A stretch of 30,858 nucleotides of DNA. Origin: Candidatus Hodarchaeota archaeon. GTDB lineage: Archaea > Asgardarchaeota > Lokiarchaeia > Sigyniarchaeales > SOKP01. The translations under genes and the position numbers were made by a program. The notes under the pieces are model-generated. The model was not told the DNA's origin, made no database searches, and was given only the letters and a program-made list of their open reading frames with translations. This document shows, piece by piece, positions 8,383 to 30,386 of the stretch. Every line of letters starts with the position of its first letter. Position 1 is the first letter of the stretch. The DNA is taken from positions 1-30,858 of the forward strand of contig JBHLKB010000001.1 of NCBI GenBank assembly GCA_048887205.1, given 5' to 3'.

Positions 8383-9642
8383 TTGAGTAATTCCACGACG
8401 CCAGAGCGAATTAATCATGACCTCACCAGTAATAAGATAACAAGAGCAGAAGCCAATCTTTTATATATATCTTTGATTGAAAATTGTGAGGATGTTCATT
8501 ATAGGATTAAGTGTTTAGAAGAATTTGGAAAGATAATTATTAATTCTAAAAAAAATTTTCAAATCTTAGAAAACTATTTAATTTCAGATGTGAATCCATT
8601 AGTGAGATTCATTTCAGCAAAAATTTTGCTGCAAAGATTTCCTAATTTATGTTTAAATCCTTTAATATGGGTAATAGAAAATGATAATTCGATAGTAGTC
8701 CTGAAGGAGCTTATGGCATTAATAAAAGTTTCTGAAGAAAAAAACTCAAAATTGTTATCAGAAAGACTCCTAGACAGATTTACAGAAATTTATGGCACTA
8801 TTCCCAAAGAAGCTGAATTTTTATTGGACATAGAATATGAATTAAATCGAAATTTAGAGGTAGCTTTTTTAAAACCTATGGTAAAGAATAAAACTATTAT
8901 AGCATTGGATTTTGCAGGGAAGAAGCTAAAAAGATTACCAGGCTCTATTGGTAATTTATCAAATTTAGAGTATTTGAATCTATGGGACAACAATTTAACT
9001 ACGTTACCAAAGACAATTGAGTCGCTTAATAATTTGCAATTTTTATACTTAGATTGGAATAAATTTCGAAATATGCCAAATTTGCAGTGGGACAAGTTAA
9101 AATCGCTTAAAAAGTTAAGTTATACTAATAATTCTCAGATAAGTGAATTTCCCAACTCGTTATTTAAACTTATTAAAAAAAACTTTATACAAAAATACAT
9201 TAATGAGGGAGTCCTCTCTGATGACGCTCCTATATTAGGATTATTAGAAATTCTCACAGGGATGAAATTAAAAAAATTAATAAAAAAAGAGAAAATTTCC
9301 AGCTTATATGCTTGCAATTATAAAATAAATCTTAATGGAAATATCAGTGGCATTTATTTATATGGATATCACAGTTTTCAGATTAATGTTATTCCAAACT
9401 GTATAAGTTCTTTAAAATTTTTGGAAGAACTCGTGTTAAGGGATCAAAATATAAACTCCATTCCGGAATTCATTAAGGATATCAATACCCTAAAACTTCT
9501 TGATTTAAGGAGAAATAATATTGAAATTATTCCAGAATCATTATTAGAAATAAAATCATTGGAATTCTTAGATTTAGGAGAGAATAAAATAAAAGAACTG
9601 CCTAAATCAGTAAAAGTTTCTCATATTGATCTTTGGTTCTGA
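8383..9642 (+). CDS. HEAT-repeat plus leucine-rich-repeat protein
   Basis: HEAT-like RIKCLEEFG...YLISDVNPLVRFISAKIL; 23-aa LRRs LKRLPGSIGNLSNLEYLNLWDNNLTTLP and INSIPEFIKDINTLKLLDLRRNNIEIIP; TTG start. Confidence 0.9.
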   Translation: MSNSTTPERINHDLTSNKITRAEANLLYISLIENCEDVHYRIKCLEEFGKIIINSKKNFQILENYLISDVNPLVRFISAKILLQRFPNLCLNPLIWVIENDNSIVVLKELMALIKVSEEKNSKLLSERLLDRFTEIYGTIPKEAEFLLDIEYELNRNLEVAFLKPMVKNKTIIALDFAGKKLKRLPGSIGNLSNLEYLNLWDNNLTTLPKTIESLNNLQFLYLDWNKFRNMPNLQWDKLKSLKKLSYTNNSQISEFPNSLFKLIKKNFIQKYINEGVLSDDAPILGLLEILTGMKLKKLIKKEKISSLYACNYKINLNGNISGIYLYGYHSFQINVIPNCISSLKFLEELVLRDQNINSIPEFIKDINTLKLLDLRRNNIEIIPESLLEIKSLEFLDLGENKIKELPKSVKVSHIDLWF

Positions 9643-9675: not shown

Positions 9676-10863
9676 TTATTTTCTCATCTGAATGAATTTA
9701 CCAGATTTCATTAGCTCACAGGGTGTCAAATACGTCAAATTTGTTTCTTCTACAAATTCTTCTAATAATTTTGTCCATTTTTCATAATTTCTTTTTCCTG
9801 CCCCAAACGGCCCCGGCATGTCCATTCCAGCCATCATTGTTTCATCAATAATTTTATAACCCGAGACAATACCTTCTTCTAAAAGTCTACATCCCTCATT
9901 TAATTGAATCGCCATAAGAAGCTCAGGATTTAAAATTCCAGCTTTTTTCGTTTTATCAACAGAAAGTTGACCTTCTTTCCATTCAAATAACCCTTTTCCT
10001 GTTTTTTTTCCTAAATTACCTTCATTTACTAATCTTGTCAAAGTTTTTCCTGGAGCGAATTCTGGAGAAAGAGCTTTCGCAAAATAATTTAAAGTATTAT
10101 ATGCTACATCAAGACCAAAATAATCCCATTTAGCAAATGGCCCTATTTTAGCTAAATGGTCAATATCTGCATCAATTTGTTCCAGTGGAATACCTCTCTC
10201 CATCGCATACTCAAGAAGCCAATTAATGTAAAGACCACCTGTTATCGTTAATCTATTTACAATAAAGCCCGGGCTTTCTTTTTCGAGGACTGGTAAAAAT
10301 CTTTCCCCTTTAAGTGCTGGAAATTTTTGGCATACTTTTTTACAGATATTAACTGTTTTCTCTGATGTGTCCTTACCTTTAATGATTTCAATTAATCTAA
10401 GCACTATTACTGGTGTAAAAAAATGACATCCAATGACTTTATCTGGACGTCCAGATGAGGAAGAAATTTCAGTTATACTCATTGTTGATGTATTAGTAGC
10501 CAAGATTGCGTGCTTTGGGGCGATTTTTCCTAATTTCTCGAAAAGATCTTGCTTCAGTTTCATGATTTCCGGAATTGCTTCAATAATGAAGTCTGCTTGC
10601 GATATAGATTTCTTAAGATCCCGTTCTTTTTTTAGATTTTTCATTAGATTAGAAGCTGTATATCCTCCTTTTAATTTTCCTTTAGCTTCTAACCTCTTTA
10701 AACCATTTTCAATTTTGTCTGCTGCTTTATTAAGAATTTCATCTTTTAAATCATTTAATATTACGCATTTAAAACCTCCCATTAAAGCAACCTGGGCTAT
10801 TTCATGACCCATAGTTCCAGCGCCTATAACTGCTATTGAATTTATGCTACTTATATCAACCAT
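9676..10863 (-). CDS. 3-hydroxyacyl-CoA dehydrogenase family protein
   Basis: NAD motif VIGAGTMGHEIA, ADFIIEAIPE, LATNTST, catalytic GCHFF, PGFIVNRL, GNLGKKTGKG and a duplicated C-terminal helical domain. Confidence 0.95.
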   Translation of the reverse strand: MVDISSINSIAVIGAGTMGHEIAQVALMGGFKCVILNDLKDEILNKAADKIENGLKRLEAKGKLKGGYTASNLMKNLKKERDLKKSISQADFIIEAIPEIMKLKQDLFEKLGKIAPKHAILATNTSTMSITEISSSSGRPDKVIGCHFFTPVIVLRLIEIIKGKDTSEKTVNICKKVCQKFPALKGERFLPVLEKESPGFIVNRLTITGGLYINWLLEYAMERGIPLEQIDADIDHLAKIGPFAKWDYFGLDVAYNTLNYFAKALSPEFAPGKTLTRLVNEGNLGKKTGKGLFEWKEGQLSVDKTKKAGILNPELLMAIQLNEGCRLLEEGIVSGYKIIDETMMAGMDMPGPFGAGKRNYEKWTKLLEEFVEETNLTYLTPCELMKSGKFIQMRK

Positions 10864-10900: not shown

Positions 10901-11929
10901 CTAAACAAAAAAAGTTGAAATTAAATACCATGAGAATATCATTGTTCCTATCCCTAGAAAAATTGAAATTGGAAGACCAGGCAAAATTTTATTTCTTTTT
11001 AATCCCGAAATAGTAATACCAGTACCAATTATTATAGAAATTGCAGTAAAAATCATTACTATTAGATTATTGGATTGAACGAGGGCACTAGAAGTAAGCA
11101 TACTATAAAAAGCTAAATCACCTATACCAATCTCTAGTTTTGAAGTGTCATATTCATAATCTCCCGATTTAATTTTACCTTCTAATTCTGTTTCATTGGA
11201 ATTTGATGCAATATCTATTAATTGTTTAATTGGACCGCGTTTATATAATACAGCAAATATATCCCAACATGAAATCCCAATTAGTATGGCTAATGTTGTC
11301 CAGAGAGGCATTAAAACTCCCATTGATGCTCCTATTAACAATCCTATATATAAAACAATAAAATTTTTAGTTTTGATTGACTTTGAACCAAAATATCTAT
11401 ATAACATGAATATGGTGAAAACAGCAGTAAAAAAAATTAATTCAAAATAAAACAAATAGTATACACGAGGTATTGTGTTAAATGCTAACCATATTATTAT
11501 ATCACCAAAAAACCAAGTTTGAAAAAATCCAATCAAAGCGAAACTAAATCCAAAGATATACATTAAAACCCCAATACCCTTTCTTTTTATTACAAATATG
11601 ATAATGAAAGCAGATATTACTGCTAAAGATGTATAAATTAAGCCATTCAAAACTCCGCCCAATAATCCCAATTCACTTTCTGGGAAATATCCCCCATCAA
11701 TTTGTATACCCGCTTCAATATATGTCAGATATGCTAAAATTCCCGAAATTATAACAACAGTAATTATTGGAACTGGATATAAATTTCTTTTTATTCTATA
11801 AGTTGGAAAGAAATGAGGTATAAAATCTTTTTTAATTATTTCTTTATCTGTTTCTGCTTCAATTCCAGATTCTTCGAAATTATCATTCCTTAATTTGGTC
11901 TCCTCAGAATTTTTTGAGATATCTGTCAT
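10901..11929 (-). CDS. Presenilin-type GxGD intramembrane aspartyl protease (MEROPS A22)
   Basis: About 9 hydrophobic segments; first Asp in ISCWDIFAVL (D223), second in GIGDLAFYSML (D271); PAL-equivalent LPGLPISI. Confidence 0.93.
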   Translation of the reverse strand: MTDISKNSEETKLRNDNFEESGIEAETDKEIIKKDFIPHFFPTYRIKRNLYPVPIITVVIISGILAYLTYIEAGIQIDGGYFPESELGLLGGVLNGLIYTSLAVISAFIIIFVIKRKGIGVLMYIFGFSFALIGFFQTWFFGDIIIWLAFNTIPRVYYLFYFELIFFTAVFTIFMLYRYFGSKSIKTKNFIVLYIGLLIGASMGVLMPLWTTLAILIGISCWDIFAVLYKRGPIKQLIDIASNSNETELEGKIKSGDYEYDTSKLEIGIGDLAFYSMLTSSALVQSNNLIVMIFTAISIIIGTGITISGLKRNKILPGLPISIFLGIGTMIFSWYLISTFFV

Positions 11930-12086
11930 TTTTTATTAATATTAATAATAGAAAAATAATTAGTTTTAATTTATAATATTATTAATGACTTAAATACCTA
12001 TTAATAATAATTTTAAACCCAATTTTTCAATTTTTTATTGAAAGAAAGAAACTTCTTATAGAAAGTAACTTATAATTCTTCTGATA

Positions 12087-12833
12087 ATGCCAAAACTTCA
12101 AAAATATGAGCAAAAAATTCGAAGATATAAAGAAAAATTAAAAAAATTAATTACACGAATAGGAATTTCTTACATTGAAGAATTTGAATTAAAGGATGAA
12201 GTCTCAAGTAAACTATTATTCCCTTGTCATTTAGGAATTCTATTCTTTGGAGAATACGATATAGATTTCTTTGAAAGAATCAAATTTAATTTAAATCAAG
12301 TATATGATTCTTTTTTCTTTGGTATTACAAATTTAGGATGTTATAATTTTTCTATCAAGCAATTTTCTAAAGGTGTTAAAAAGGAATATAAAGAAATGCA
12401 AAAACCCTTTGATAAAATGGAAATACATCCAACTAATAAATTCTATCAAATACTAATAAACAAGAGGAAGGAAGAAAATCTTGGATTAATAATTGCTATA
12501 ACTGATCTTCCTATATATTCAAGTAGTAATGATAATATATTGTTTCTATTTGGAGAAACTCACTTAAAACACCGATGTTGTGTAGTATCATCATTAAAAT
12601 TAAAAGAACAATTCTATAATAGACCTGATGATCATCCACTTTTTGAACAGCGAGTATTTAAAGAAATTATCCATGAAGTTGGTCACTTAATAATAAGTCC
12701 TGACCATTGTCTCAAAAATTCATGCGTTATGCGATTTTCAAATAACGTGAGAGAAATTGATAAGAAATCAATTAATTTTTGTGATGAATGTAAAAAAAAA
12801 CTATATAAAGTTAGAGATCGATTCAATTTCTAA
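12087..12833 (+). CDS. Archaemetzincin-like zinc metalloprotease with N-terminal extension
   Basis: IIAITDLPIY, FLFGE, CVVSSLKL, FKEIIHEVGH...HC, Met-turn CVMRFSN and FCDEC (Cys4 structural site). Confidence 0.9.
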   Translation: MPKLQKYEQKIRRYKEKLKKLITRIGISYIEEFELKDEVSSKLLFPCHLGILFFGEYDIDFFERIKFNLNQVYDSFFFGITNLGCYNFSIKQFSKGVKKEYKEMQKPFDKMEIHPTNKFYQILINKRKEENLGLIIAITDLPIYSSSNDNILFLFGETHLKHRCCVVSSLKLKEQFYNRPDDHPLFEQRVFKEIIHEVGHLIISPDHCLKNSCVMRFSNNVREIDKKSINFCDECKKKLYKVRDRFNF

Positions 12834-12851: not shown

Positions 12852-14102
12852 TTAGAAACTAGCAATAGGGAGTTTATGAACAAATTCTTTAACTAACTCC
12901 ACTCTCTCTTTTCTATCTTTCTTATAATAACGTAAAGGGTAGAGCTCATTAATTATAAACTTATAAAGTTTCACCCAAGTTTTTGCTACTTTACTAATTC
13001 TGTAATTTTGTGCTACCATTTTAGAATGCATGCCCATTTCTGTCCTTAAGTCGTCATTTTTAAATAATCTTACGGTATTATCCTTGAAATCATTAAGATT
13101 ATTACAAAGATACCCAGTTTTGCCATGTCTGATCACATTTGAAATTCCAACCGCATTTGCTCCTATACAGGGGGTTCCTTGCGCCATTGCTTCAATTAAT
13201 ACTAATCCCTCAGCTTCTATCCATGACCATAAACAAGCTAAATCAGCAGTATTATATAGTCTTAATAAATCTGTGAAAGGCACTCGACCTAAATATGAAA
13301 CATTATCTCTATAGTGTTTCTTTTTGATGAGTTTCTTAACATGTGAACTTGATGGTCCGTCACTTCCAACAAGTACTAAATGCGAATCTGGTACTTCCGT
13401 TTTGATCTTTCTAAACGTTTTAATTACATTTAGTTGATGCTTCTCAGGGGACAACCTAGAAGCATATAGAAGTATCTTCTTGTTGTCTAAGTTGTATTTA
13501 TCTCGTATTCCATTTTCCTTTAAGTCTGTATAATATAAATCTGATATACCGTTAGTCATACAAATAATTGGTTCTTTAAATCTTTGATTTCTAAGTAATT
13601 CTTTTTTTGATTTCGTAGGAACTGAAACGAGATCATATTTATCTAATACATGCCTTTCATAACGCCAAACCCAATCCATTCTTGCTAATAATTTACCAAA
13701 TACTGGGATGTATTGGGCTGTGTAAAATGATAATGGAGAATTATGAGTTCCAACCATTGGAATCCCTAGATATTTAGCCCAATTAATTCCCATTGAACCA
13801 AAACTGGCATGTGTGTGAATATGAGCAATATCTAGAAAATCATATTGACAAAAAAAGTATCTGTGTATTGGAAGGCTTAGTACAAACCCAGTTTTTGAAG
13901 AAATTTTTGCCCCTAAAAAGTTATAGAGGTATAGATTTTTAATTTTTGTTTTAGGGTAATGAATACCGGGTGCAAATACATGGACATTATGCCCAGTATA
14001 TTTTGCAATGCCTTCAGCAAGGTTTCTGCAAGCTATAGCACTACCATTAATTTGTGAATACATACTGGTGAAAAATCCAATATCCAATTTCTGTTTAGCC
14101 AT
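12852..14102 (-). CDS. GT4-family glycosyltransferase (diacylglycerol glucosyltransferase/UGDG-like)
   Basis: GT-B features: GFFTSMYSQINGS, HIHTHASFG, LYASRLSPEK and the Ex7E motif EAEGLVLIEAMAQGTP. Confidence 0.9.
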   Translation of the reverse strand: MAKQKLDIGFFTSMYSQINGSAIACRNLAEGIAKYTGHNVHVFAPGIHYPKTKIKNLYLYNFLGAKISSKTGFVLSLPIHRYFFCQYDFLDIAHIHTHASFGSMGINWAKYLGIPMVGTHNSPLSFYTAQYIPVFGKLLARMDWVWRYERHVLDKYDLVSVPTKSKKELLRNQRFKEPIICMTNGISDLYYTDLKENGIRDKYNLDNKKILLYASRLSPEKHQLNVIKTFRKIKTEVPDSHLVLVGSDGPSSSHVKKLIKKKHYRDNVSYLGRVPFTDLLRLYNTADLACLWSWIEAEGLVLIEAMAQGTPCIGANAVGISNVIRHGKTGYLCNNLNDFKDNTVRLFKNDDLRTEMGMHSKMVAQNYRISKVAKTWVKLYKFIINELYPLRYYKKDRKERVELVKEFVHKLPIASF

Positions 14103-14980: not shown

Positions 14981-15922
14981 TTGCTCAATGATCCAGAACC
15001 TTATGAGAGCTCGATTGCTGATTTAAAAATTTTGGAGGAAGAAATCTTACCCATAAATGATGCTTTTCAGAAAGTTTTTGGTCTTGATAAAGAGCTTAAG
15101 CTAAATTCTATTAAACTAGCTATAGGTAGTAATATAAGTGATTATGTTACAATTGGAGAAAATGATTTGATTAAATATGATGTCAAACCCACACTTACAG
15201 GATTATTAGATTTCATCAAGGAAAACAAGGAAAGTATTCTAGGGTTTTTAGATTGTGAATATATTAGTGAAGAGGGAAACGTTATATATCTTAATTGTGG
15301 GAAAAAGAACATATCAGAAAATATTTTTTCTATAAAAGTCCTGATCCTTGCCTCTCTGCAACAACGAGGATTTTTTCTTCAACAGGAACATAAGTACTAC
15401 GGTCTTCAACTTTATATAATTCTAGAATCGAGGCAACCAAACGATAATTTGTTATTTAAGTTATTGAAGGAACTAAATATTGATTGGGAATTAATATTTT
15501 TTAGAAGAAAACTTGCTATTCATGATTGGACCGAGATTGAATGTGAAAAAAATTCTGAAAATCTCAAAAGTTATCTTCGCGCCAAGTTTGAGACTCTAAA
15601 TTATTTTGATGTAAATAATATAATACGTTTAATCGTTAAGAATCAGTTACCTTTTAAAGTGGCCTATAAAATGGCCTCTTTATTATATAAAATGAAAAAT
15701 CAGCGAACAATTCGGATTTCCGATAAAGCTTTTCAAGAAAGTTCCTATCCAGAAGACCAAATTCAACAAGATGAGTATTCTATTACCCTTAAAAAAGCTG
15801 AAGTTGCTGCTGCAGCCAAACTCGCTTGTGCATACTTAGGAATCCCAAAAAAAATGAAGTTCGACCGAGATATTTCATCTGATGAAATTCTAAAATATGA
15901 AGAAGAATTAACAAATATGTAA
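14981..15922 (+). CDS. Hypothetical protein; true start probably further upstream; weak TFB/cyclin-fold resemblance at the C-terminus
   Basis: 313-aa ORF from TTG; the frame stays open for 66 more codons upstream, to 14783. Confidence 0.7.
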   Translation: MLNDPEPYESSIADLKILEEEILPINDAFQKVFGLDKELKLNSIKLAIGSNISDYVTIGENDLIKYDVKPTLTGLLDFIKENKESILGFLDCEYISEEGNVIYLNCGKKNISENIFSIKVLILASLQQRGFFLQQEHKYYGLQLYIILESRQPNDNLLFKLLKELNIDWELIFFRRKLAIHDWTEIECEKNSENLKSYLRAKFETLNYFDVNNIIRLIVKNQLPFKVAYKMASLLYKMKNQRTIRISDKAFQESSYPEDQIQQDEYSITLKKAEVAAAAKLACAYLGIPKKMKFDRDISSDEILKYEEELTNM

Positions 15923-15985: not shown

Positions 15986-16981
15986 TTATATCAATCCATA
16001 AGAGAGTTTCAACAATTCATGATTTACTTTTCCTAAAGTTTTACTTCTTCCTGTTTTTATATTTGTAACAGTATATATTGCTGGAGCAAATAATCCTGGG
16101 TCAATATCATAAAAGTTATAATTTGCAGCTTTGAATATTTCAAGAAAAGGTTTTCCATAACTTGGTGATGTATTAGCTGGTGCTTCTTTAAGAAGTTCAA
16201 ATATTTCTTCTTCTTTATCCTTTTCTACATTAATCGTATAATATGTTAAGCCAGCAGCAATTATAGAATCGTTAGTACGCCCCATCGCACCGAGGTCATC
16301 TTTAGCAATAGGAGCAACTGTAGTAGAACCAAAACCATCAATTAAAGCCTCTATCGGAAATTTTATTTCATGTAATTTATGTATTCCAGTCTCTACAATT
16401 CTGGAGGCAACTTGAATTGAACCTGTCAAACATGCAGTTGGAGCACATAATGCATATGTATTATTTGTTTCCACACTACATTTTTTTGCTACAATTTCCA
16501 TAACTTCTTCATTTGGCAATTTATGAGTTTCAAATATAATGACGGCACAATTAGAATCGTCGCTGTAATCTATTTCTTCAAATAACTTTTCCACTTTACT
16601 TTTAGCACGAGCGGGTCCTGATCCCAAAGATTGAAAAACAACTTTTTTTTTAACCTGTCCATCCGTTTCTACTTCCTTTTTTAATTTGACACTCCAACCA
16701 GCCAATTGAGAAGCCAAACATGAAATTATTGGTTCCGAAGTGTAAACATTAACACTCGGCAGAAAATGTCCATCCAAATTATAAGAAGAAAATTTTACAG
16801 TCCCTAAACCACCCATACAAATTTCTCCCATTAATTTGCCTCCATCCCAAGTTGCTTTTGACATATCAAGTACAGTGGACCCATTTGCTAATTTAACTAT
16901 CTCTACATTATAAATATCTTTATTTTGAATGATTTTTTCAATAATATGCTTAGCAATGTCATTTATTTTTACGTGATGCAC
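15986..16981 (-). CDS. mch: Methenyltetrahydromethanopterin cyclohydrolase
   Basis: EICMGGLG, CLASQLAGW, GSGPARA, GSIQVASRIVETG, MGRTNDSI, YGKPF, DPGLFAPA; GTG start with GGTGA at 16988-16992. Confidence 0.97.
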   Translation of the reverse strand: MHHVKINDIAKHIIEKIIQNKDIYNVEIVKLANGSTVLDMSKATWDGGKLMGEICMGGLGTVKFSSYNLDGHFLPSVNVYTSEPIISCLASQLAGWSVKLKKEVETDGQVKKKVVFQSLGSGPARAKSKVEKLFEEIDYSDDSNCAVIIFETHKLPNEEVMEIVAKKCSVETNNTYALCAPTACLTGSIQVASRIVETGIHKLHEIKFPIEALIDGFGSTTVAPIAKDDLGAMGRTNDSIIAAGLTYYTINVEKDKEEEIFELLKEAPANTSPSYGKPFLEIFKAANYNFYDIDPGLFAPAIYTVTNIKTGRSKTLGKVNHELLKLSYGLI

Positions 16982-18640: not shown

Positions 18641-19948
18641 TTAAATTTTGTATACCTCTCCAATTTCAGGAGCAACTGAATTATAACCTTTTTTCACTAA
18701 TTCACTTGCAAAAGTTGTAGTTGATTTATTATCTCCATGAATGCAAAATATATTATTATTAGATTTATTTCGAAATTCCATACTTTCTATATAATCGTAT
18801 AGATGTACATTATCAGCATGGCTAGAAAAATCGAAATAATCGTAATCACATCTAGCTTCAATTTGAAAATTATTGAAAATGTTTTTTTTCTTCCGTTGTT
18901 CTTTAAATTCAAAAAGTCCATGATCGAGTAATCCCCTTCCAGGACTCCCTTCCACTTGATATCCTACTAAATAAATGGCAGATAGAGGATCCGTTAATAT
19001 AGTGTCTATATAATCTAATGCTGCGCCTCCTTTAAGCATACCAGAAGGGGAAATAATAACCCCATTCGCTTTTTTCACATGTATTCTATCTTTTTTCCTA
19101 GAAATGAAATGGGTTTTTTTTACTACGCCTTTAAAAGCCTTTATATCTTTAATAGATTCTGGATATTCTAAATAAATTCTAGAGATTTTTCTAGCTAATC
19201 CATCCATAAAAATTTTACCAGTATAATTATACTTTTCTAAAATCAATAATGCCTCTTGTGAACGGGCAACTCCAAAAGCAGGGATCAAAACTTTTCCACC
19301 TTTTTCAGTGATCTCAGTAATTCGTTCTATAAATTTTTCTTCAAGCAATTTTCTGGGGGGATGCTCCTTAAGAGCATATGTTGATTCAATAATTAAAGCA
19401 TCTAATTTAGGTATATCTATATGATTAGCGGGATTAATTAGATTTGTCATTTGCGTGTTGATATCTCCAGAATATAATATACGCTTATCATCAATCTCAA
19501 TCAATATCGAAACACTCCCAGGTATATGTCCAGCATCAAAAAAAGTCATGAAGAAGTTATCATCTATTCTAAAACGATTTTTTTTCTTAAGAAAATACGC
19601 ATTTTCTCTTAAAATATCTAATTCTCTAACACCAAATGGATAGGGATAATTTGAAATCTTTATCATATCTTGTATTAAAACATCAACAATCACTAAGGAA
19701 ACAGGGTTAGTAAAAAATGGAACTCTATACTTTTTATAGATGAAAGGTAAAGCTCCTGAGTGATCAATATGACTATGAGTCAATCCAACTGCTTTTAGAT
19801 TCTCAAAATTAGTTTCAAGTGGTAATCTTTCTCCATTATTGAATCCAATCCCATAATCTAAAATACATTTTGCTCTATTTTTAGACTCTATAAGAATCCC
19901 TGAGCGCCCAATTTCTCTGCAACCACCTAAAAAAGAAATTTTTACCAT
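18641..19948 (-). CDS. MBL-fold beta-CASP ribonuclease (aCPSF-like, no N-terminal KH domains)
   Basis: FLGGCREIGRS, THSHIDHSG, AGHIPGS, YSGD, IESTY, IPAFGVARSQE, GYQVEGSPG, FSSHAD. Confidence 0.95.
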   Translation of the reverse strand: MVKISFLGGCREIGRSGILIESKNRAKCILDYGIGFNNGERLPLETNFENLKAVGLTHSHIDHSGALPFIYKKYRVPFFTNPVSLVIVDVLIQDMIKISNYPYPFGVRELDILRENAYFLKKKNRFRIDDNFFMTFFDAGHIPGSVSILIEIDDKRILYSGDINTQMTNLINPANHIDIPKLDALIIESTYALKEHPPRKLLEEKFIERITEITEKGGKVLIPAFGVARSQEALLILEKYNYTGKIFMDGLARKISRIYLEYPESIKDIKAFKGVVKKTHFISRKKDRIHVKKANGVIISPSGMLKGGAALDYIDTILTDPLSAIYLVGYQVEGSPGRGLLDHGLFEFKEQRKKKNIFNNFQIEARCDYDYFDFSSHADNVHLYDYIESMEFRNKSNNNIFCIHGDNKSTTTFASELVKKGYNSVAPEIGEVYKI

Positions 19949-20130: not shown

Positions 20131-20880
20131 TTATCTTATTTTTTTTATAGCATTTGTTATTAAATTAACAACATTATTGACATTTTTACTAAAAATTTCT
20201 AATATCTCTTCCCAAGTTACGGGAACTTCATCTTCTTTCCAGCAATCATAATCTGTAGACATCGCGACTGCAGCATATGGAATACCCGCTTCATTTGCTA
20301 AAATTGTTTCAGGAGCTATACTCATATTTATTACATCGGCGCCCCATATCCGAAACATATTTGATTCTGCTCTTGTAGAAAACCTTGGACCTTCAATAGT
20401 AACAACAGTTCCTTTTTCATGAAATTTAAGATTTAACTGCTTAGCAGTTTCAATAAGAATTTTTCTCAACTCTCCTGAAAAAGGATCGGCCATTGGTGTA
20501 TGTTTCATATCTCCAGGAACGAATTGCTCAAAAAAAGTAATTTTCCTATGTCGGGTGAAGTCAATAAATTGGTCAAGGATAACGAGATCACCTCTATCTA
20601 TCTCTTCCCTCAAGCTTCCGCAAGCTGTTGTGGCCATTATATGAGAACACCCTTGATCTTTTAATGCTTGTATGTTAGCTCTATAATTTACTTGTGTGGG
20701 TGGTATAGTATGTTGTCTTCCATGTCTAGCTATAAGAACCACATCAACGTCCTTGATTGTTCCTAATTTTAGAGAAGAACTAGGTTTTCCATATTTGGTT
20801 TCGACATCAATATCCTTAGAATCTTTTAAAATGTCTGGATTGTCCAATCCCGATCCTCCAATAATTCCTATTTTTACCAA
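20131..20880 (-). CDS. mtnP: S-methyl-5'-thioadenosine phosphorylase
   Basis: [52 protein letters not shown]; TTG start with AGGAG at 20888-20892. Confidence 0.97.
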   Translation of the reverse strand: [249 protein letters not shown]

Positions 20881-22828: not shown

Positions 22829-23785
22829 ATGAAAATTCTATTGTTCGGTCCTGCTGGAGCAGGTAAGACATCACTAATGCGAACGACTTGTTTAGGATAT
22901 AATTTTATGAAAGTGTTAGATTTAAAACCCACTAAAGGAGTTTCAAGAGAAAATTTTATCTTTCGTGGTATAATGGAACTCAATGTATGGGATTTGGGGG
23001 GACAGGAGAGATATATGGAGAGATACTTCTCTGAATCTCAACGTGAACTGATATTTTCAGAAGCCACGACAGCAGTTTTTATGGTTGATTCTGCTGCGGT
23101 GGATCCTAAAGTTAGAGAAATATTTGATAACTTCTTAAAGTATTTATTCCAATTTTCTCCTAAAATTGCTATGGTTTATGTTCTATTAAATAAAATAGAC
23201 TTACAAGAATCTGAAGAAGATGAATATTACAAGATCTTAACAGAAAATTTAAACGACGGTTTAATGGCAAAACTTTCATTCACCCCTGTGTCTGTTAAAG
23301 AAGGAAGTGCTCAACATAGACTGATTGAAATATTAGATTATGAGATTCAAAAGAATACTTTATCAATGCAACGTTTAGGAAAAATTCGACATTTATTAGA
23401 TGAGTTAAAAATCAATACTTTATCGGAATATCTTTTATTTAACCAACCTGATGGATTATTAATTTCCTCTACCTTTGGTAAATTTGAATCGAAACCATTA
23501 AGGTTTATGAAATTTGAAATCGGAACCTTAGATTCTAATATTTATAATATTTATCAACAGATTATGGAACTTCAAAATATATCTATCCTTTCTCCTTTAT
23601 CCTTGTCTACTATTGTATACGAATCAGAGAATTGTTGGATTTTAGTGAAAGAAGTTAGTAACGGAGCAGTTTTGATGGCAGTAACGAGAAATAAAAGGCT
23701 AGAAGTCTTTTCTGGTGTTATGAACGCGCTAACTGGAGATGCATTTAAAAATTTGAAACTATATTTAAAATCTCCTGAATTTTAA
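22829..23785 (+). CDS. Rag/Gtr1-like GTPase with C-terminal roadblock-like domain
   Basis: G1 GPAGAGKTS, G2 KPT, G3 WDLGGQ followed by Rag-type YMERYFSESQRELIF, G4 NKID; C-terminal region of about 130 aa with YLLFNQPDGLLISS and WILVKEVSNGAVLMAV. Confidence 0.88.
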   Translation: MKILLFGPAGAGKTSLMRTTCLGYNFMKVLDLKPTKGVSRENFIFRGIMELNVWDLGGQERYMERYFSESQRELIFSEATTAVFMVDSAAVDPKVREIFDNFLKYLFQFSPKIAMVYVLLNKIDLQESEEDEYYKILTENLNDGLMAKLSFTPVSVKEGSAQHRLIEILDYEIQKNTLSMQRLGKIRHLLDELKINTLSEYLLFNQPDGLLISSTFGKFESKPLRFMKFEIGTLDSNIYNIYQQIMELQNISILSPLSLSTIVYESENCWILVKEVSNGAVLMAVTRNKRLEVFSGVMNALTGDAFKNLKLYLKSPEF

Positions 23786-23860: not shown

Positions 23861-24712
23861 TTATTGTTCTTTATCATATAATCCAATCTTAGTTAAAAAA
23901 TGTTGTTTTGCATGATGTGGTCTTCTAATGACAGTATCGTTAGATTTTTCAATCTCTCTTGCTTCATCACACATTAGAGCTGCGGTTCTCATCATCTCAT
24001 GAGCTGCGGCTAATAATGGCATATATTCAGATCGTTCTTTTAACTGGAAACAAGCCTTTCCTGTAATTTTAGACACTGAAGCTGCTAGTTCAAAAGCAGC
24101 GATTGCTTTAGCCCTAGCATATGGATTCGCGAATTTGGCAGCTTCAGTTGCATTTTTTGCTTCAATGATAATTTGAGGTAAAATAGGTGATCTATTTTCA
24201 AGCATATCCATGATTACCTTATTTAATTCCTCAGAAATTACTTGGAGTGCTCCAGTGATTGCAAGAACCTTTAGTAGATCCGAGTTAAATATACTCATCT
24301 CAACTGGATCGAGAAAAGGTCTACGTGCTCCGATCATGCTGTCACAATTTACTAATATATAACCCATATTCTTTTCTTTTATTTCGTCAATAGCTTTTTT
24401 AGCAGGAGCATCAGAAATAACAATTGTAGGTATTCCCCTCGTCATTTCTCTAACCGCTTTAGGACCAGGCAATGCTGCATTTGGACTAGACATTATTATT
24501 AGTTCAGGCTGAAATTCTAGTAACTTTTTCATAGTTTCTACACATTGGTCTGCTGGATGCATTTTAGCTCCAGAAGTCACTTCTCTTACATTAATTCTCG
24601 TAGCTTCTGCTCTCTCGTCCATTAAAAAAGCAAGTAACAAGGATGAGCCAATGGTACCATTTTTAAGGATACCAATATTAAGTATTTTCCCTTCTTCGCT
24701 CATTTTAAACAA
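23861..24712 (-). CDS. mtd: F420-dependent methylenetetrahydromethanopterin dehydrogenase
   Basis: KNGTIGSS, MDERAE, SGAKM, SPNAALPGP, DSMIGARRPFLDPVEM, FANPYARAKA, AAAHEMMRTA, RRPH; alternative ATG at 24703. Confidence 0.96.
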   Translation of the reverse strand: MFKMSEEGKILNIGILKNGTIGSSLLLAFLMDERAEATRINVREVTSGAKMHPADQCVETMKKLLEFQPELIIMSSPNAALPGPKAVREMTRGIPTIVISDAPAKKAIDEIKEKNMGYILVNCDSMIGARRPFLDPVEMSIFNSDLLKVLAITGALQVISEELNKVIMDMLENRSPILPQIIIEAKNATEAAKFANPYARAKAIAAFELAASVSKITGKACFQLKERSEYMPLLAAAHEMMRTAALMCDEAREIEKSNDTVIRRPHHAKQHFLTKIGLYDKEQ

Positions 24713-24875: not shown

Positions 24876-25796
24876 ATGGAGATAAATGGTGTCGAGATTG
24901 AAGATACTTTCTGTGAAGCATTTGGAGCATGGTTCACAAGAATTTTAGTTACAGCAAAAAATGAAAAATGGGTGCAGATCGCAGCAAGGGAGGCAACAGG
25001 TTACGGTACATCGGGAATTGGTTGTGATGCAGAAGCAGGTATCGATGTATTAATACCTGGGGAAAATACATTTGATAAGCGTCCTGGAGCAGCCTTAATG
25101 TTCTTTGTTAGAGATAAAAAAAAAATCAGTGATGTGATGCTACACCGTGTAGGGCAATGCATCTTAACTAGTCCTACTGCTGCTTGTTTTGATTTAATTG
25201 ACGGTTCTTTAGAACCAGAAAAAGAGTTTGAAATCAAAACAGGATTCTTTTTAAAATTCTTTGGAGATAAATATGAAGAAAAAGTAGAAGGAGTATACCC
25301 ATTTCCTATATGGAAAATACCTATCATGGCAGGGGAGTTTATAGTTCAAAATACTTTAATGGTTGGAAAAGGAATCGCTGGAGGTAATTTTTTGATAATT
25401 GGAAAAGACCAAGATTCTGTTTTAGAAGCTGCCGAGAAAGCGATTGAAGTAATAAATAATATAAGTAATTTAATTACCCCATTTCCAGGAGGAATTGTAC
25501 CCTCAGGTTCAAAAGTAGGAACTCGATATGAAAATGTTCCAGGACTCTTTGCAACTACTAACCACGCTTATTGTCCAACGTTAAGAACAAAAGTAGAAGA
25601 TACGAAGCTAAGAGAGGAGGATGGGTGTGTATTTGAAATAGTTTTAGACGGTGCGACTGAAGAAGTAATAAAAAGTGCGATGAGGCGGGGAATTGAAGCA
25701 GCAGTTAAAGTACCAGGTGTGAATCGAATCTCTGCTGGAAATTATGGTGGGAAGCTCGGTAAATTCCATTATAGACTTCATGATATTTTAGGTTAA
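24876..25796 (+). CDS. ftr: Formylmethanofuran--tetrahydromethanopterin formyltransferase
   Basis: EINGVEIEDTFCEAF, TGYGTSGIGCDAEAG, RVGQCILTSPT, GIAGGNF, GSKVG, EIVLDG, ISAGNYGGKLG. Confidence 0.97.
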   Translation: MEINGVEIEDTFCEAFGAWFTRILVTAKNEKWVQIAAREATGYGTSGIGCDAEAGIDVLIPGENTFDKRPGAALMFFVRDKKKISDVMLHRVGQCILTSPTAACFDLIDGSLEPEKEFEIKTGFFLKFFGDKYEEKVEGVYPFPIWKIPIMAGEFIVQNTLMVGKGIAGGNFLIIGKDQDSVLEAAEKAIEVINNISNLITPFPGGIVPSGSKVGTRYENVPGLFATTNHAYCPTLRTKVEDTKLREEDGCVFEIVLDGATEEVIKSAMRRGIEAAVKVPGVNRISAGNYGGKLGKFHYRLHDILG

Positions 25797-25849: not shown

Positions 25850-27565
25850 CTATAATTTTCTTTTTATTTTTCGTTTTGGAAATTCCTCCTTTTCTTCTTT
25901 AGGAGGTTCAATTTCTTCAATTTCCTTTTTCTCGAGTTCTTCTTTAATCAGTTTAGCCTTAGCTTTCTTTTTAATTGGTTTTTTCTTAGTTGGAATTTCC
26001 TTTTTTGAAGGGGGGGTAACTTGTGCTTTTGATTTGAAGTATTTATAAATACTACCAATACCTACAAGGATCCCAATACCTAATCCAAAGAAAAATCCAA
26101 TCCAAGGCATAAAATTACTTAAAATGTCTGGAATTATTCTTATTCCCTGGGGTGCTAAATTATAATCTTTTGTAAGGCTTGTAACTGCACCATCTGAGTC
26201 GATAACATACACATACACATACCAAGTGCCAGTTATTAATTCAATTGTCCTAATAACAATTTCTGTATTTACTCCATTATAAACACTCGTAATATTATAC
26301 CAATCATTTTTTTCGTCTATAAGGGCTAGTTTAACATATGATACTCCCTCAACATCAGATACATTAAATGAAAAAACTAAATTTACACCATATTGGACAG
26401 AAATACTCTGATCCATGGTCATTCCATTGATTGTATAACTATGAATCTCAGGGAGATTGTTTTTCACCGTTAGAAAGGTTTCTTTGGAAGATTCCCCTCC
26501 ATGTTCATCTCGCGCAATTACAATGACTTTATAACTACCAATAGGTCTGTTCGATGGTAATGTAAAAAGATCGGAATAAGAATGTCCACTATCATGCTCC
26601 AATATGTTATTAACCAACACATTTTTACCTTCAGAATCTTGAAGATTCATAAGAACTGTGAGATTCTCCGGTAAGCTTTCAATATCAGTAGCATTTACAG
26701 AAATTGTACAATCATCACTTCTAAATACTTCACTAGGAGAAAGGTCAATGATAGAGGTAATTAAGGGATTAGAATTTCTTACATAGAAAGGAAAGTAAGC
26801 AGCTACTTTTTTTCCAGTATTAATATCAGACATATTTACTTTTATATAATATTCTTTGTTTACCTGTCTGAAAGTCTCATTAATTATTGGAAGGGTGAAT
26901 TGACTACTATTACTTCCAAGATTTATTAAATTATTTTGTGTTGTCTCATTCCTACTATCAACAACAGTTATATTCCACTGAAGTTCATATGTAACACTAT
27001 TACTAGTAAAATTATTATCTATCAACAATTCAGCGTATAAAATATCTCCAATAAAATATTCATAACTAACTATTCCTTCTTTTTTAAAAATCGCTAAACA
27101 GTTTGTATGAATTGTGAAGTTAGTATATGTAGTTTGATCATTTAATAATGTACCAGTTTGATTATAAATTAAAAAACTGACATTTTGAAATCCTAAGGGG
27201 GCATAGTATCCTGGTTTATATTCATAGAAAGATTTATTATTCCCGACCGATGCCATATCATAATTTCTGATAGAGCCATTAAAAAATGATATTTGCATTA
27301 TTGTATAGTTGGCATTTGGAAAATTAGTAGTATCGACAGTGAAATTAATAGACTCAAACCATCGATATACATCTGTTGCATTCTGAAAAATATCAGAATA
27401 TGTCAAGGCAGCAGCGATTTTAGGTAGAGATTCCTCCTCATCATAATTATTATATTTTTGATTGGAAACCTGTTTATGATTTAATGGAGTTAGCAGAATA
27501 TTAAAAACTAAAGCAAGTAAAATGAAAATTACTAAGATACCATATTTGTGTTGACTTTTTATCAA
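25850..27565 (-). CDS. Secreted beta-rich (Ig-like) glycoprotein with C-terminal membrane anchor and charged tail
   Basis: N-terminal hydrophobic segment ILVIFILLALVFNILL; 18 N-x-S/T sequons counted by hand; repeated NxxP-I...N(A/V)(T/S)D.E modules; anchor WIGFFFGLGIGILVGIGSIY; Lys/Glu-rich tail. Confidence 0.8.
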   Translation of the reverse strand: MIKSQHKYGILVIFILLALVFNILLTPLNHKQVSNQKYNNYDEEESLPKIAAALTYSDIFQNATDVYRWFESINFTVDTTNFPNANYTIMQISFFNGSIRNYDMASVGNNKSFYEYKPGYYAPLGFQNVSFLIYNQTGTLLNDQTTYTNFTIHTNCLAIFKKEGIVSYEYFIGDILYAELLIDNNFTSNSVTYELQWNITVVDSRNETTQNNLINLGSNSSQFTLPIINETFRQVNKEYYIKVNMSDINTGKKVAAYFPFYVRNSNPLITSIIDLSPSEVFRSDDCTISVNATDIESLPENLTVLMNLQDSEGKNVLVNNILEHDSGHSYSDLFTLPSNRPIGSYKVIVIARDEHGGESSKETFLTVKNNLPEIHSYTINGMTMDQSISVQYGVNLVFSFNVSDVEGVSYVKLALIDEKNDWYNITSVYNGVNTEIVIRTIELITGTWYVYVYVIDSDGAVTSLTKDYNLAPQGIRIIPDILSNFMPWIGFFFGLGIGILVGIGSIYKYFKSKAQVTPPSKKEIPTKKKPIKKKAKAKLIKEELEKKEIEEIEPPKEEKEEFPKRKIKRKL

Positions 27566-27572
27566 TTCTTAC

Positions 27573-30386
27573 TCATCTTCTTAATTTCTTAAATTTTATA
27601 TCTTTATTTTTAAAAAACAGTATTATTCCAATAGGTATTATAATCGGTAATACGTAAAAAATAATTAAATTAAGAGTTGATAACTCTATTGCGACTTCAA
27701 AATAAAATCTAGCAAATTCTTCCTCAACACTGTCTTTTAATACTATTCTATATTTCTTTATCCCAAACTCATAAGGATTTATTGTAGGCATAATTTGTAC
27801 AAAAATTCTATTTTCTCCAGTATTTAACTCGACTATATTAGTAGCTATTCCTTCTCCATTTATATATAATGAAAATGGTTCTGAATTTTCTTGGTTATTT
27901 CGTATGATAATAATTAAATATGCAAGAACCCCCTGTGGTACACGTTCAGGAAAAGAAACACTAAGGATCTCAAATTTATCTATTATTTGTATTGTAAATA
28001 CTTCAGAATAATATTCTGTTGTGTTTATTAAAATATTCATTTTAATCTTAATTGTCTCATCGGTAATAGATTCTAAAGATTTTAAATTATAAGATACTGC
28101 TCTTATTTCATTTTCATTTAATGTTTCCTCTTTTACATAATCATCAATACTGTTTTGAGTGATTCCTGTAAAACTTATGTTTAATGATTGGGTTGCATTT
28201 GGCAGAAAGTTTTTTATATTCATTGATACAAATATATTATCTCCAGGAACCACTTTACTTTGATATAAGAGGTTGCTATAGTCAAATGAATATCCAATCT
28301 CTATAATCCTTTTAATTTTTAAATAAATTACATTGCCTTGCTTAATTTTAAAAAATATTTCGGTCTTTCCAGGTATTGCCCCAGTTTTAGCTGTAAGGTT
28401 AAAAGAGATTATGATTTGTTTAGAAGCCGTAAAATTGATTACTTGTGGGGCGTAATATTTTATTTCCTGCCCTTCTAAAGATGCTGTTACGGTTAAGTTA
28501 TCACGACGTGTGTTGTTGATAACTAGAGACACATTTACAATTGGTCCTTGATATAAGGTGCTTATTAATCCATTAATTGTTGTATTAATTAAACCTGAAC
28601 TAACGTTGAAGCGCTTTAGATCTTGTGCCATTTTAAAATAAGTTGTATTAGCCCACACATAGATGAAGTATCCATCACCCATAGGCAAACTTTCTTCGAC
28701 ATTATATAAAAGAGTAGAGGAGGTAACAGGATCAACAATTTGGTCTTCAAGTTGATAAAAGAAAGTTCCGTTCGGATATTTTAACAGGTAAGTAATACTA
28801 GCATTTGTAATATCATATTGTACTGTAAAACTTAGATAAGAATTGCTATCGGGATTATAATATTCATTAGTTTTTTTAAATGAATAACTAGATGTTAAAT
28901 TCAAAGTATCATGATTAAAGATAAAATCTGGAATATCGTTTGAAACATTATACGTTGCAATTAAAATTGTACTATTATAAATTTCAAAAGCGTCTAAATA
29001 CGCCTCGCTTAATCCGAGGTTTGAGTTAAAATTTTTAGAATTGTTTGCTAAGTTAAAATCATAGGCATTATTTACATTGTCATATAAATTTGTTTCAATA
29101 CCATTGAAAATTTGCAAAGCTCTATTATAATAGGTATAATTTCCTGTAATTTCAAATAGTTTTAAACAAGCACTCATCATTAAGGCATTTGCTTTAAGAT
29201 CTGGTGTAGAATCAATAACAGTCCAATCCGGTTGAGCAATATTTTCATAGAGATTATTAATATCATCCCATAAATTATTATCTAAGCTGTTATAGACATC
29301 AATAGCTTTTTGAAAATAAGGGTAGTAGGTAGAATCATTTTTCATTCCAGTTTTAATCCAAAATTCTAAAAATGTAATTATTCCTAAAGCATTTGTACTT
29401 AAATGATAATTTGTACCAAAAAGAACAATAAAAGGATTCCAATTTGTGTCAGAATGGTGATAGAAAGCTTTTCCTGATGTACTCCACATACTATTATTAA
29501 TAGCAATCATTGTAAGATTTGCTAATTCATAAGCTCTATCTCTTATAGAAATATCATACTTGGGGTCTTGATAAACTCGATGAATTAAAAGATTTGCTAA
29601 AACGCTATAAAAATTGCTTTCAAGATACTTATCAGAGGTAGAATTATGATTGTAAAATCCATAATTAGACCCGTCCCAAAATTCAGATGAATTTATTAAA
29701 TAAAACATTTCATTTATAGAATCTTCTGGAAATATACCATCAATGGAGAAATCATCAAGATCATATCCAATATTTCCAATTAGAAGAAAAATGGGTAGTA
29801 AATTATCATATAAATACCTATCACTATTTTTTACTTGGCTGGTAGAATTATCAATTGATTCTACGAATCCATAATTAAATTGGCCGTTGTTGCCTTCATA
29901 CCATAATGGAGTCTCTTTTAGCTTTAAATACATATCAAATGTGGTAGTTTTACTTATTTCCATTTTCTTTAATGACTTATAATAAAGTAAATTATCTTCT
30001 GAAAAAATAGTATCATCAGTAATATCACCATCTGTATCCCCATATCGAAAATACATGGGCACTTCAAAGTCTAAACTTGATTGATACTTATTTTCAAAAA
30101 AAGCTCTTAATAATTCAAAATTCACAGTAAAAGGATTTCGAAGTATTGAAGTTCCTGCGGTTGTTATTTTATTATCAAGGAGATTCTCCTGTTTATCACT
30201 TTCATCTATAGGTAAAAAGACTTCAGGATTATTAATTTTAAAATTACTATCGTTAATAAGTAAAAAATTTAGCATAATAATCATTGTTAAGAGAAGACAT
30301 ATAACTCCTTTTAACAATTGCTTCCTCTGTCTTCTTTTCTTTTCAATATTGTTTAAACTCAAAAATCTCATTTTGACTTGAATCAA
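27573..30386 (-). CDS. Large membrane-anchored surface protein: (alpha/alpha)-toroid-like domain, Ig/CARDB-like domains, C-terminal TM
   Basis: Basic N-terminus plus hydrophobic segment; helical-hairpin repeats ending in W/Y-D...F/Y; many sequons; anchor LIIFYVLPIIIPIGIILFF then KNKDIKFKKLRR; alternative ATG at 30371. Confidence 0.75.
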   Translation of the reverse strand: MIQVKMRFLSLNNIEKKRRQRKQLLKGVICLLLTMIIMLNFLLINDSNFKINNPEVFLPIDESDKQENLLDNKITTAGTSILRNPFTVNFELLRAFFENKYQSSLDFEVPMYFRYGDTDGDITDDTIFSEDNLLYYKSLKKMEISKTTTFDMYLKLKETPLWYEGNNGQFNYGFVESIDNSTSQVKNSDRYLYDNLLPIFLLIGNIGYDLDDFSIDGIFPEDSINEMFYLINSSEFWDGSNYGFYNHNSTSDKYLESNFYSVLANLLIHRVYQDPKYDISIRDRAYELANLTMIAINNSMWSTSGKAFYHHSDTNWNPFIVLFGTNYHLSTNALGIITFLEFWIKTGMKNDSTYYPYFQKAIDVYNSLDNNLWDDINNLYENIAQPDWTVIDSTPDLKANALMMSACLKLFEITGNYTYYNRALQIFNGIETNLYDNVNNAYDFNLANNSKNFNSNLGLSEAYLDAFEIYNSTILIATYNVSNDIPDFIFNHDTLNLTSSYSFKKTNEYYNPDSNSYLSFTVQYDITNASITYLLKYPNGTFFYQLEDQIVDPVTSSTLLYNVEESLPMGDGYFIYVWANTTYFKMAQDLKRFNVSSGLINTTINGLISTLYQGPIVNVSLVINNTRRDNLTVTASLEGQEIKYYAPQVINFTASKQIIISFNLTAKTGAIPGKTEIFFKIKQGNVIYLKIKRIIEIGYSFDYSNLLYQSKVVPGDNIFVSMNIKNFLPNATQSLNISFTGITQNSIDDYVKEETLNENEIRAVSYNLKSLESITDETIKIKMNILINTTEYYSEVFTIQIIDKFEILSVSFPERVPQGVLAYLIIIIRNNQENSEPFSLYINGEGIATNIVELNTGENRIFVQIMPTINPYEFGIKKYRIVLKDSVEEEFARFYFEVAIELSTLNLIIFYVLPIIIPIGIILFFKNKDIKFKKLRR

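Follow-up and report, generated by a model that had tools for sequence, protein, structure and literature searches.

A gene for a presenilin (PS) and a gene for an archaemetzincin (peptidase family M54) stand head to head in a stretch of 30,858 nt from Candidatus Hodarchaeota archaeon (GenBank assembly GCA_048887205.1, contig JBHLKB010000001.1, positions 1 to 30,858 of the forward strand), hereafter called the window. This adjacency is kept across Asgard lineages whose general synteny is lost. We favour, tentatively and as a little short of an even chance, the reading that the two proteases form a real functional module, co-expressed and with the metzincin on the cytoplasmic face of the membrane. 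What is new is the conserved association, a gene block and a specialised M54 subfamily; each of the two genes, taken alone, is an ordinary member of its family.

The divergent gene pair, its conservation and its spacer

The PS gene (10901..11929, minus strand) encodes 342 amino acids (Pfam Presenilin PF01080, 80.6 bits for a cut-off of 34.3), and the M54 gene (12087..12833, plus strand), a long paralogue, encodes 248 amino acids (Pfam Peptidase_M54 PF07998, 76.4 bits for a cut-off of 24.4). Between them lies a divergent intergenic spacer of 157 bp (11930..12086), common to both. An original prediction, made from the letters of the window, had described two unrelated proteases divergently transcribed across this spacer: the open reading frame (ORF) coordinates and the distinct Pfam families agree with it exactly. 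The start codons of both genes are backed by N-terminal conservation among relatives. The genome (2.78 Mb in 430 contigs, 83% complete) carries this single presenilin gene and two M54 genes, the second of which, on contig C297, belongs to the short, canonical type.

We have surveyed Asgard archaea for the pair. The genomes are metagenome-assembled genomes (MAGs), close kin among them are not independent, some gene starts were chosen mechanically, and the Asgard-wide counts are lower bounds. In the genus of the window, a divergent PS gene and a gene for an M54 of about 250 aa occur on the same contig in 32 of 36 genomes; of the other four, two lack a long M54, one is interrupted by a contig break and one, which is 58% complete, has no PS. 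Among Promethearchaeota MAGs at the family level, the pair is present in 67 of the 78 evaluable loci (80 named loci). An apparent co-loss of PS and linked M54 in genome G191 was rejected: the contig starts inside the flanking glycosyltransferase gene, which marks an assembly break.

The link extends to other families (numbered with the prefix f; f1 is that of the window). Within the same class (Lokiarchaeia), the two genes are adjacent and divergent in f3, in f6 (two genomes) and in one of the two f7 genomes (G059), while in f4 the divergent orientation is kept with one gene between PS and M54. In f26, from another class (shared with f8), the pair is divergent in all three genomes listed, one of which (G103) has a mobile element inserted between M54 and PS (L038:1171-2484), consisting of a TnpB-like ORF (Cas12f1-like TNB domain) and a 131-aa ORF. 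In f9, from a third, small class (with f23), both genomes listed have PS and M54 co-directional, and the M54 stop codon overlaps the PS start codon (TGATG), the form of a translationally coupled operon. Overall, the PS-M54 link is found in at least seven families of at least three Asgard classes. Conservation of the adjacency across Asgard genomes had been proposed as the test of the original prediction, and it came out positive from the genus to the class level.

The gene that intervenes in f4 (L040:2790-5153 in genome G039, with a homologue in L041) encodes a 787-aa X-Pro dipeptidyl-peptidase of family S15, with about 5-6 predicted transmembrane segments before the catalytic domain. The f4 locus is, thus, a cluster of three proteases, two of the three being membrane-embedded.

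Outside f1, the genes that flank the pair differ. For comparison, 20 loci around unlinked M54 genes have almost no neighbours in common between families; therefore, general synteny at these distances is essentially lost. Since the PS-M54 adjacency recurs between families and classes nonetheless, it is well beyond chance, and the original prediction's reservation that it might be accidental can be dropped. The conserved adjacency, and the stop/start-overlapping operon of one lineage, make it plausible that the two genes are co-expressed and in some way functionally linked.

The spacer itself points in the same direction within the closest relatives. Its length in 67 related loci ranges between 24 and 273 bp, with a median of 146. 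A core of 39 bp, TTTATAATATTATTAATGACTTAAATACCTATTAATAAT (11970..12008), shows at least 80% column conservation across 41 species, while the remaining spacer varies. This core, a candidate shared promoter or operator element, holds two ATTAAT palindromes as well as TATA-like boxes on both strands. In the same 41-species alignment, a second conserved block, AAGAAACTTCTTAT (12046..12059; an AAGAA-N2-TTCTT dyad), is located 28-41 nt upstream of the M54 start. These elements are consistent with a shared regulatory region for PS and M54. Only genera g1 and g20 keep the core; it was not seen in f3, f6, f7 and f26, nor in genera g18 and g21.

Two other candidate roles for the spacer were rejected. 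A regulon-wide operator is not indicated, since the 39-bp core occurs once in the window and nowhere else in the genome, and its near-matches are no commoner than those of a reversed-pattern control. Nor is a known non-coding RNA: no Rfam family was assigned to the spacer, the single match being a spurious miRNA (E 0.22).

The presenilin and the archaemetzincin

Catalytic residues are intact in both proteins. In PS, these are D223 of the WD motif (CWDIF) and D271 of the GxGD motif (G268-I-G270-D271), invariant in 11 diverse Asgard presenilins. The PAL-like motif is P317-G-L319-P320, and among the same 11 sequences its P, L and P are invariant, with G or A as the middle residue. Kyte-Doolittle hydropathy, a crude method, gives nine hydrophobic segments, that is, about nine transmembrane segments. 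By sequence, the PS of the window is closer to eukaryotic presenilin than to archaeal PDB chains: of the solved structures, human PS1 and PS2 match it best (E 3.8e-13 to 2.9e-9), and no chain in the PDB of the archaeal presenilin homologue PSH was matched at E<=0.01. Its homologues in a collection of 5.8 billion proteins are all annotated as hypothetical.

We found no match at E<=0.01 to nicastrin (PF05450), APH-1 (PF06105) or PEN-2 (PF10251) in the window's genome, which is 83% complete (the control genomes gave no positive control for APH-1 or PEN-2). Since none of these gamma-secretase cofactors was found, the PS of the window is probably a stand-alone enzyme like PSH, which is active without cofactors and without prior removal of the substrate's ectodomain and whose natural substrates are unknown (PMC2947513).

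In the M54 protein, the alignment of 118 M54 sequences shows H196, E197, H200, H207, C208, C213, C232 and C235 to be invariant and M215 nearly so. The core motif, HEVGHLIISPDHC...C213-V-M215...C232xxC235, has all the zinc ligands, the catalytic Glu, the Met-turn and the Cys4 site, and may be compared with the published archaemetzincin consensus, HEXXHXXGXXHCX4CXM...CXXC (PMC3427221). The zinc motif of the linked M54 in f1 and f3 reads HExxHxxxGxxHC instead of the canonical HExxHxxGxxHC, with one residue inserted between the second His and the Gly; in the M54 of the window, moreover, this Gly is replaced by Ser. To judge from the residues retained, this is a variant of the zinc motif and not its loss.

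The AlphaFold2 (AF2) model of the protein (pLDDT 86.7, pTM 0.81) comprises a metzincin core and a Cys4 zinc finger. Its top Foldseek matches are 3ZVS (AfAmzA, the best), 2X7M, 3LMC and 4AXQ, with E values of 1e-12 to 1e-13 and TM-scores of 0.76-0.81 normalised to target; ADAM/adamalysin domains appear only as distant metzincin relatives (E ~1e-4). By sequence, too, the matches in the PDB are AfAmzA (E 3.7e-16) and MkAmzA (E 2.1e-12). Neither a signal peptide nor an N-terminal transmembrane segment is present in any of the 118 M54 homologues, and the M54 of the window has no hydrophobic segment (maximum KD19 1.08); the caveat to this effect in the original prediction was right. Because no M54 in the set carries such a signal, the enzyme is predicted to be cytoplasmic, with a soluble AmzA-type fold.

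The protein has a conserved N-terminal extension of 44 residues, modelled by AF2 as a helix (residues 2-24) followed by a flexible linker of low confidence (residues 25-44). The helix is cationic and amphipathic, with a net charge of +8 and a hydrophobic moment of ~0.6. An electrostatic match between an acidic N-tail of PS and this basic helix was considered and not used, the net charges of the N-tail being inconsistent (-7 to +1 across lineages). The sole long M54 protein that we found (P0121, an ENA metagenome protein of 1002 aa) is fused to a PMT_2 (PF13231) polytopic membrane glycosyltransferase, an instance of an M54 domain that can be membrane-tethered.

In an M54 tree from a quick search on 208 columns, the PS-linked M54 sequences of f1 and f3 group in a single clade (SH-aLRT 99) on a stem of 1.29 substitutions per site, apart from all canonical M54, including the second copy of the same genomes. 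The members of this long-branched clade always adjoin presenilin. The linked M54 of f4, f6, f7, f9 and f26 have the canonical length and motif. For 14 independent close pairs, the median dN/dS is 0.24 for the linked M54 paralogue and 0.18 for PS: in the window's family, the linked paralogue evolves fast, yet it is under purifying selection.

Archaeal AmzA enzymes look catalytically complete, but standard assays show no activity and the cleft is occluded, which suggests a trigger, a partner or a very specific substrate (PMC3427221). AMZ-tk degrades casein and has endoproteolytic and self-cleavage activity (PMC4681839).

A proposed ancestral gene block and the meaning of the adjacency

Gene orders around PS and M54 were established by clustering of flanking ORFs and Pfam identification. 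With arrowheads for the direction of transcription and dots for other genes, they are HCDH< PS< M54> GT4< c5> Mch< DHH> betaCASP< PNP< in f1; M54< PS>.< DHH< Mch> in f3; DHH< Mch> PS< S15-peptidase> M54>.< PNP< betaCASP> in f4; PAC2< betaCASP> M54< PS> in f6; PS< M54> betaCASP< in f7; KH< PS< M54>.> betaCASP< PAC2> PNP< in f26; betaCASP>.< PS< M54< in f9; and PAC2< betaCASP> PS> ... KH> in f17, where M54 is located elsewhere in the genome. The simplest reading of these orders is an ancestral block KH-PS-M54-betaCASP-PAC2-PNP that would have decayed differently in each lineage. To our knowledge, this block has not been described before.

Two putative remnants of the block lie in the window beyond the pair. 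One encodes a beta-CASP/RMMBL metallo-beta-lactamase RNase (18641..19948, minus strand; identified with Pfam), the counterpart of which adjoins M54 or PS in f6, f7, f26, f9 and f17; this RNase gene is present at 10 of 17 PS-linked loci and at none of the 20 unlinked M54 loci. The other encodes a PNP_UDP_1 phosphorylase (MTAP-like; 20131..20880, minus strand; identified with Pfam and by clustering), also found in f4, f26 and f11. The pair is flanked on the PS side by a 3-hydroxyacyl-CoA dehydrogenase gene (HCDH; 9676-10863, minus strand) and on the M54 side by a GT4 glycosyltransferase gene (12852-14102, minus strand), both identified with Pfam. Further downstream, a 313-aa protein of cluster c5 without a Pfam match (14981-15922, plus strand) is conserved beside the block in f1, f3 and f4; the divergent Mch-DHH (RecJ-like) gene pair is itself conserved in these three families. 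Three genes of the tetrahydromethanopterin C1 pathway are present in the window: Mch (15986-16981, minus strand), Mtd (23861-24712, minus strand) and Ftr (24876-25796, plus strand). The window also encodes a Gtr1/RagA-like small GTPase (22829-23785, plus strand) and a leucine-rich-repeat protein (8383-9642, plus strand), of the eukaryote-signature type that is typical of Asgard genomes.

It is possible, rather than probable, that PS and M54 are neighbours only as members of this slowly decaying block (KH, beta-CASP RNase, PAC2, PNP), with their shared divergent promoter region making the junction harder to break. The block is visible in f6, f7, f26, f9, f4, f17 and f11, and in two of these families PS is closely packed with another of its members. 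In f17 (L194:2491-4647, genome G126), the beta-CASP/RMMBL RNase gene ends 3 nt before the PS start, in an operon-like manner, and in f11 PAC2 abuts PS, M54 being elsewhere, near a PNP gene. Since PS is packed just as closely against these partners, a short distance between genes of this block does not guarantee that they have a function in common. Furthermore, the linked M54 has been cleanly deleted in 11 of the 78 family-level loci, with the order DHH-Mch-c5-GT4-[ ]-PS-HCDH intact; as these 11 loci fall into at least two identity groups, the loss must have been repeated. In f2, all 14 genomes have PS and not one has M54. Finally, the whole neighbourhood is syntenic within f1, so most of the raw counts are inflated and not independent.

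All of these observations weigh against a functional module, and there are others of the same bearing. The link is not obligate: in at least 15 of the Asgard families that carry either gene or both, the two are apart, and they do not occur within 6 kb of each other in f5, f8, f10, f11, f12, f14, f17, f18, f20, f21, f22, f25, f27, f28 and f32, in genome G060 of f7 and in the f1 genera g19, g22 and g24. Among the matches listed, f24 and f13 have M54 without PS, and f32 has PS with no or little M54. In view of f2, f32, f24 and f13 and of the 11 deletions, PS and M54 are not consistently co-inherited. We found no Rosetta-stone fusion of PS and M54, which is weak evidence.

Decay of a block is less easily reconciled with the unequal fate of its junctions: the PS-M54 junction is kept in seven families, against three each for betaCASP-PAC2 and M54-betaCASP. 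In f9, the arrangement has been remodelled without separation, from divergent to co-directional with translational coupling, and in f4 nothing but the gene of a further peptidase, a membrane one, has come between the two. From the persistence of the junction, the operon form in f9 and the nature of the f4 insertion, we argue for selection on the link. Divergent gene pairs that persist between classes are, as a rule, co-regulated, which also counts against residual synteny as the whole explanation.

An alternative that we consider improbable is that M54 acts on the presenilin itself, as a "presenilinase" in trans that would cut the cytoplasmic N-tail or the loop between transmembrane segments 6 and 7 to activate, inactivate or turn over PS. 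In the standard nine-transmembrane topology of presenilins, the N-tail and this loop are cytoplasmic, so that in the PS of the window both (the N-tail measures about 48 aa by hydropathy) would face the compartment in which M54 is predicted to reside. Eukaryotic presenilin, indeed, requires endoproteolysis of the loop. The specific trigger or substrate that AmzA seems to need (PMC3427221) and the endoproteolytic, self-cleaving activity of AMZ-tk (PMC4681839) would suit such a role as well. However, archaeal PSH is active uncleaved (PMC2947513), the presenilins of f2 have the longest loops yet no M54 beside them or elsewhere, and PS is unchanged where the linked M54 is deleted.

The original prediction had gone further and proposed an analogue of Notch/APP-style processing, in which M54 would be the site-1 protease that removes ectodomains before PS acts, as ADAM proteases do before gamma-secretase. 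The metzincin fold is distantly like that of ADAM catalytic domains (the Foldseek matches at E ~1e-4), the adjacency is conserved and type-I-like membrane proteins are encoded in the genome; still, there is very little to be said for this mechanism. As a cytoplasmic protein, M54 cannot shed ectodomains: no export signal was found in any of the 118 sequences, and the model is of the soluble AmzA type. Archaeal PSH acts without cofactors and does not depend on removal of the ectodomain (PMC2947513), and the 83%-complete genome gave no match to nicastrin, APH-1 or PEN-2. The partnership is, moreover, dispensable, as f2 and the repeated losses show. Of the co-regulated sheddase/presenilin pair, therefore, the conserved adjacency and a plausible co-expression stand, and the order of events, with shedding ahead of presenilin, does not.

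The same prediction had pointed to two C-terminally anchored glycoproteins of the window. These type-I-like single-pass proteins, of 571 aa (25850-27565, minus strand) and 937 aa (27573-30386, minus strand), each have an N-terminal hydrophobic segment and one C-terminal transmembrane segment; with 18 or 25 NxS/T sequons, they are putatively glycosylated. That much of the description holds, but a tie to the PS-M54 pair does not. The two genes are tandem neighbours that constitute one locus, 14 kb from the pair, and at least 32 such single-pass proteins are scattered through the 83%-complete genome, with about 0.36 expected per window. Their candidacy as linked substrates was dropped as unsupported. 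The 571-aa protein, which has no Pfam match, ends after its transmembrane segment in a 65-residue tail that is very rich in Lys and Glu.

We give just as little credit to a role like that of CarG in Myxococcus, in which the linked M54 would regulate without proteolysis and would owe its atypical zinc motif to lost catalysis. The one-residue insertion in HExxHxxGxxH, the Gly to Ser change in the window's genome and the long stem branch (1.29 substitutions per site) would fit, as would the precedent of an archaemetzincin homologue that is inactive and functions in transcription (PMC3427221). On the other side, the paralogue shows little or no variation in the catalytic Glu (which CarG lacks), its three His, the Met-turn or the Cys4 site, its dN/dS is 0.24, and the linked copies of f4, f6, f7, f9 and f26 have the canonical motif.

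We thus return to the reading that PS and M54 form a functional module. Presenilins cut type-I membrane proteins inside the bilayer and release the C-terminal fragment into the cytoplasm. In the Asgard archaea concerned, a stand-alone PS would cut single-pass membrane proteins within the bilayer, and the soluble M54 would act at the cytoplasmic face, its most likely role being to trim or degrade the cytoplasm-facing fragments or tails freed by PS. In the window's family, the cationic amphipathic N-terminal helix could, on its flexible tether, keep M54 at the membrane or at the surface of the presenilin. The pair would then be the most persistent junction of the old Asgard block. The original prediction had named action of M54 on the released cytoplasmic fragment as a fallback; it fits the topology, and we have adopted it here. 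Co-regulation of the two genes, a physical or sequential interaction of their products, the nature of the substrates and the role of the helix are the parts of this scheme that we infer. In a stronger version, which we consider doubtful, the module would be ancestral to Asgard archaea, with M54 docking on or near PS (here, via its tethered helix), being switched on there and processing the intracellular fragments that PS releases.

Relation to known proteolytic systems and significance

Full-text searches of the literature turned up no paper that connects archaemetzincin with presenilin in archaea. Taken singly, the two enzymes have well-known counterparts. The PS of the window shares with PSH (MCMJR1) of Methanoculleus marisnigri and with eukaryotic presenilin-1 (MEROPS A22A) the GxGD di-aspartyl type, the nine hydrophobic segments and the motifs (W/Y)D, GxGD and P-x-L-P. 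It differs from both in reading WD for YD and PGL for PAL, and from PSH in its conserved metzincin neighbour, which is undescribed for the latter. The M54 of the window is like AfAmzA (3ZVS/4AXQ), MkAmzA (2X7M), AMZ-tk and human AMZ1/AMZ2 (MEROPS M54) in its fold, the HExxH...H zinc site, the Met-turn, the Cys4 zinc finger and its solubility; unlike these, it has some 45 extra N-terminal residues (helix and linker) and the insertion in the zinc motif, and it belongs to a separate, long-branched clade.

The pair as such recalls the two-step regulated intramembrane proteolysis (RIP) of eukaryotes, where ADAM10/17 and then gamma-secretase act on Notch and APP: a metzincin-fold protease and a presenilin are encoded together, and type-I proteins are potential substrates. 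Unlike in that system, the Asgard metzincin is predicted to be cytoplasmic, nicastrin, APH-1 and PEN-2 were not found, and shedding is not expected to be required; if the two enzymes act in sequence at all, they would do so in the reverse order or at the opposite face of the membrane. The best mechanistic fit to the predicted PS-M54 topology, by analogy, is bacterial RIP with a finishing protease in the cytoplasm. In the cascade DegS -> RseP -> ClpXP, acting on RseA, a cytoplasmic protease finishes the fragment after the intramembrane cut. The enzymes are different, an S2P metalloprotease and the AAA+ protease ClpXP there, a presenilin and M54 here, and no anti-sigma-type substrate was identified in our case.

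For the gene block, the nearest parallel may be the archaeal exosome-proteasome "superoperon", a conserved block of housekeeping genes. Both mix RNA-processing genes (in the Asgard block, beta-CASP RNase and KH) with genes for proteolysis (PAC2, of a proteasome-chaperone family, M54 and PS). The Asgard block has another gene set and is patchy within Asgard archaea.

Structures have been solved for presenilin and archaemetzincin, while their physiological role in archaea is unknown; the conserved link between them provides a testable hypothesis for both, in the archaeal phylum closest to eukaryotes. The analogy with ADAM proteases being topologically impossible, any cooperation must take place on the cytoplasmic side. 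If residual synteny were all there is to the adjacency, it would still define a previously undescribed Asgard gene block and a distinct archaemetzincin subfamily. If the docking and activation module were true, it would be the first physiological role for both orphan enzymes, and multi-protease intramembrane signalling or clearance would predate eukaryotes.

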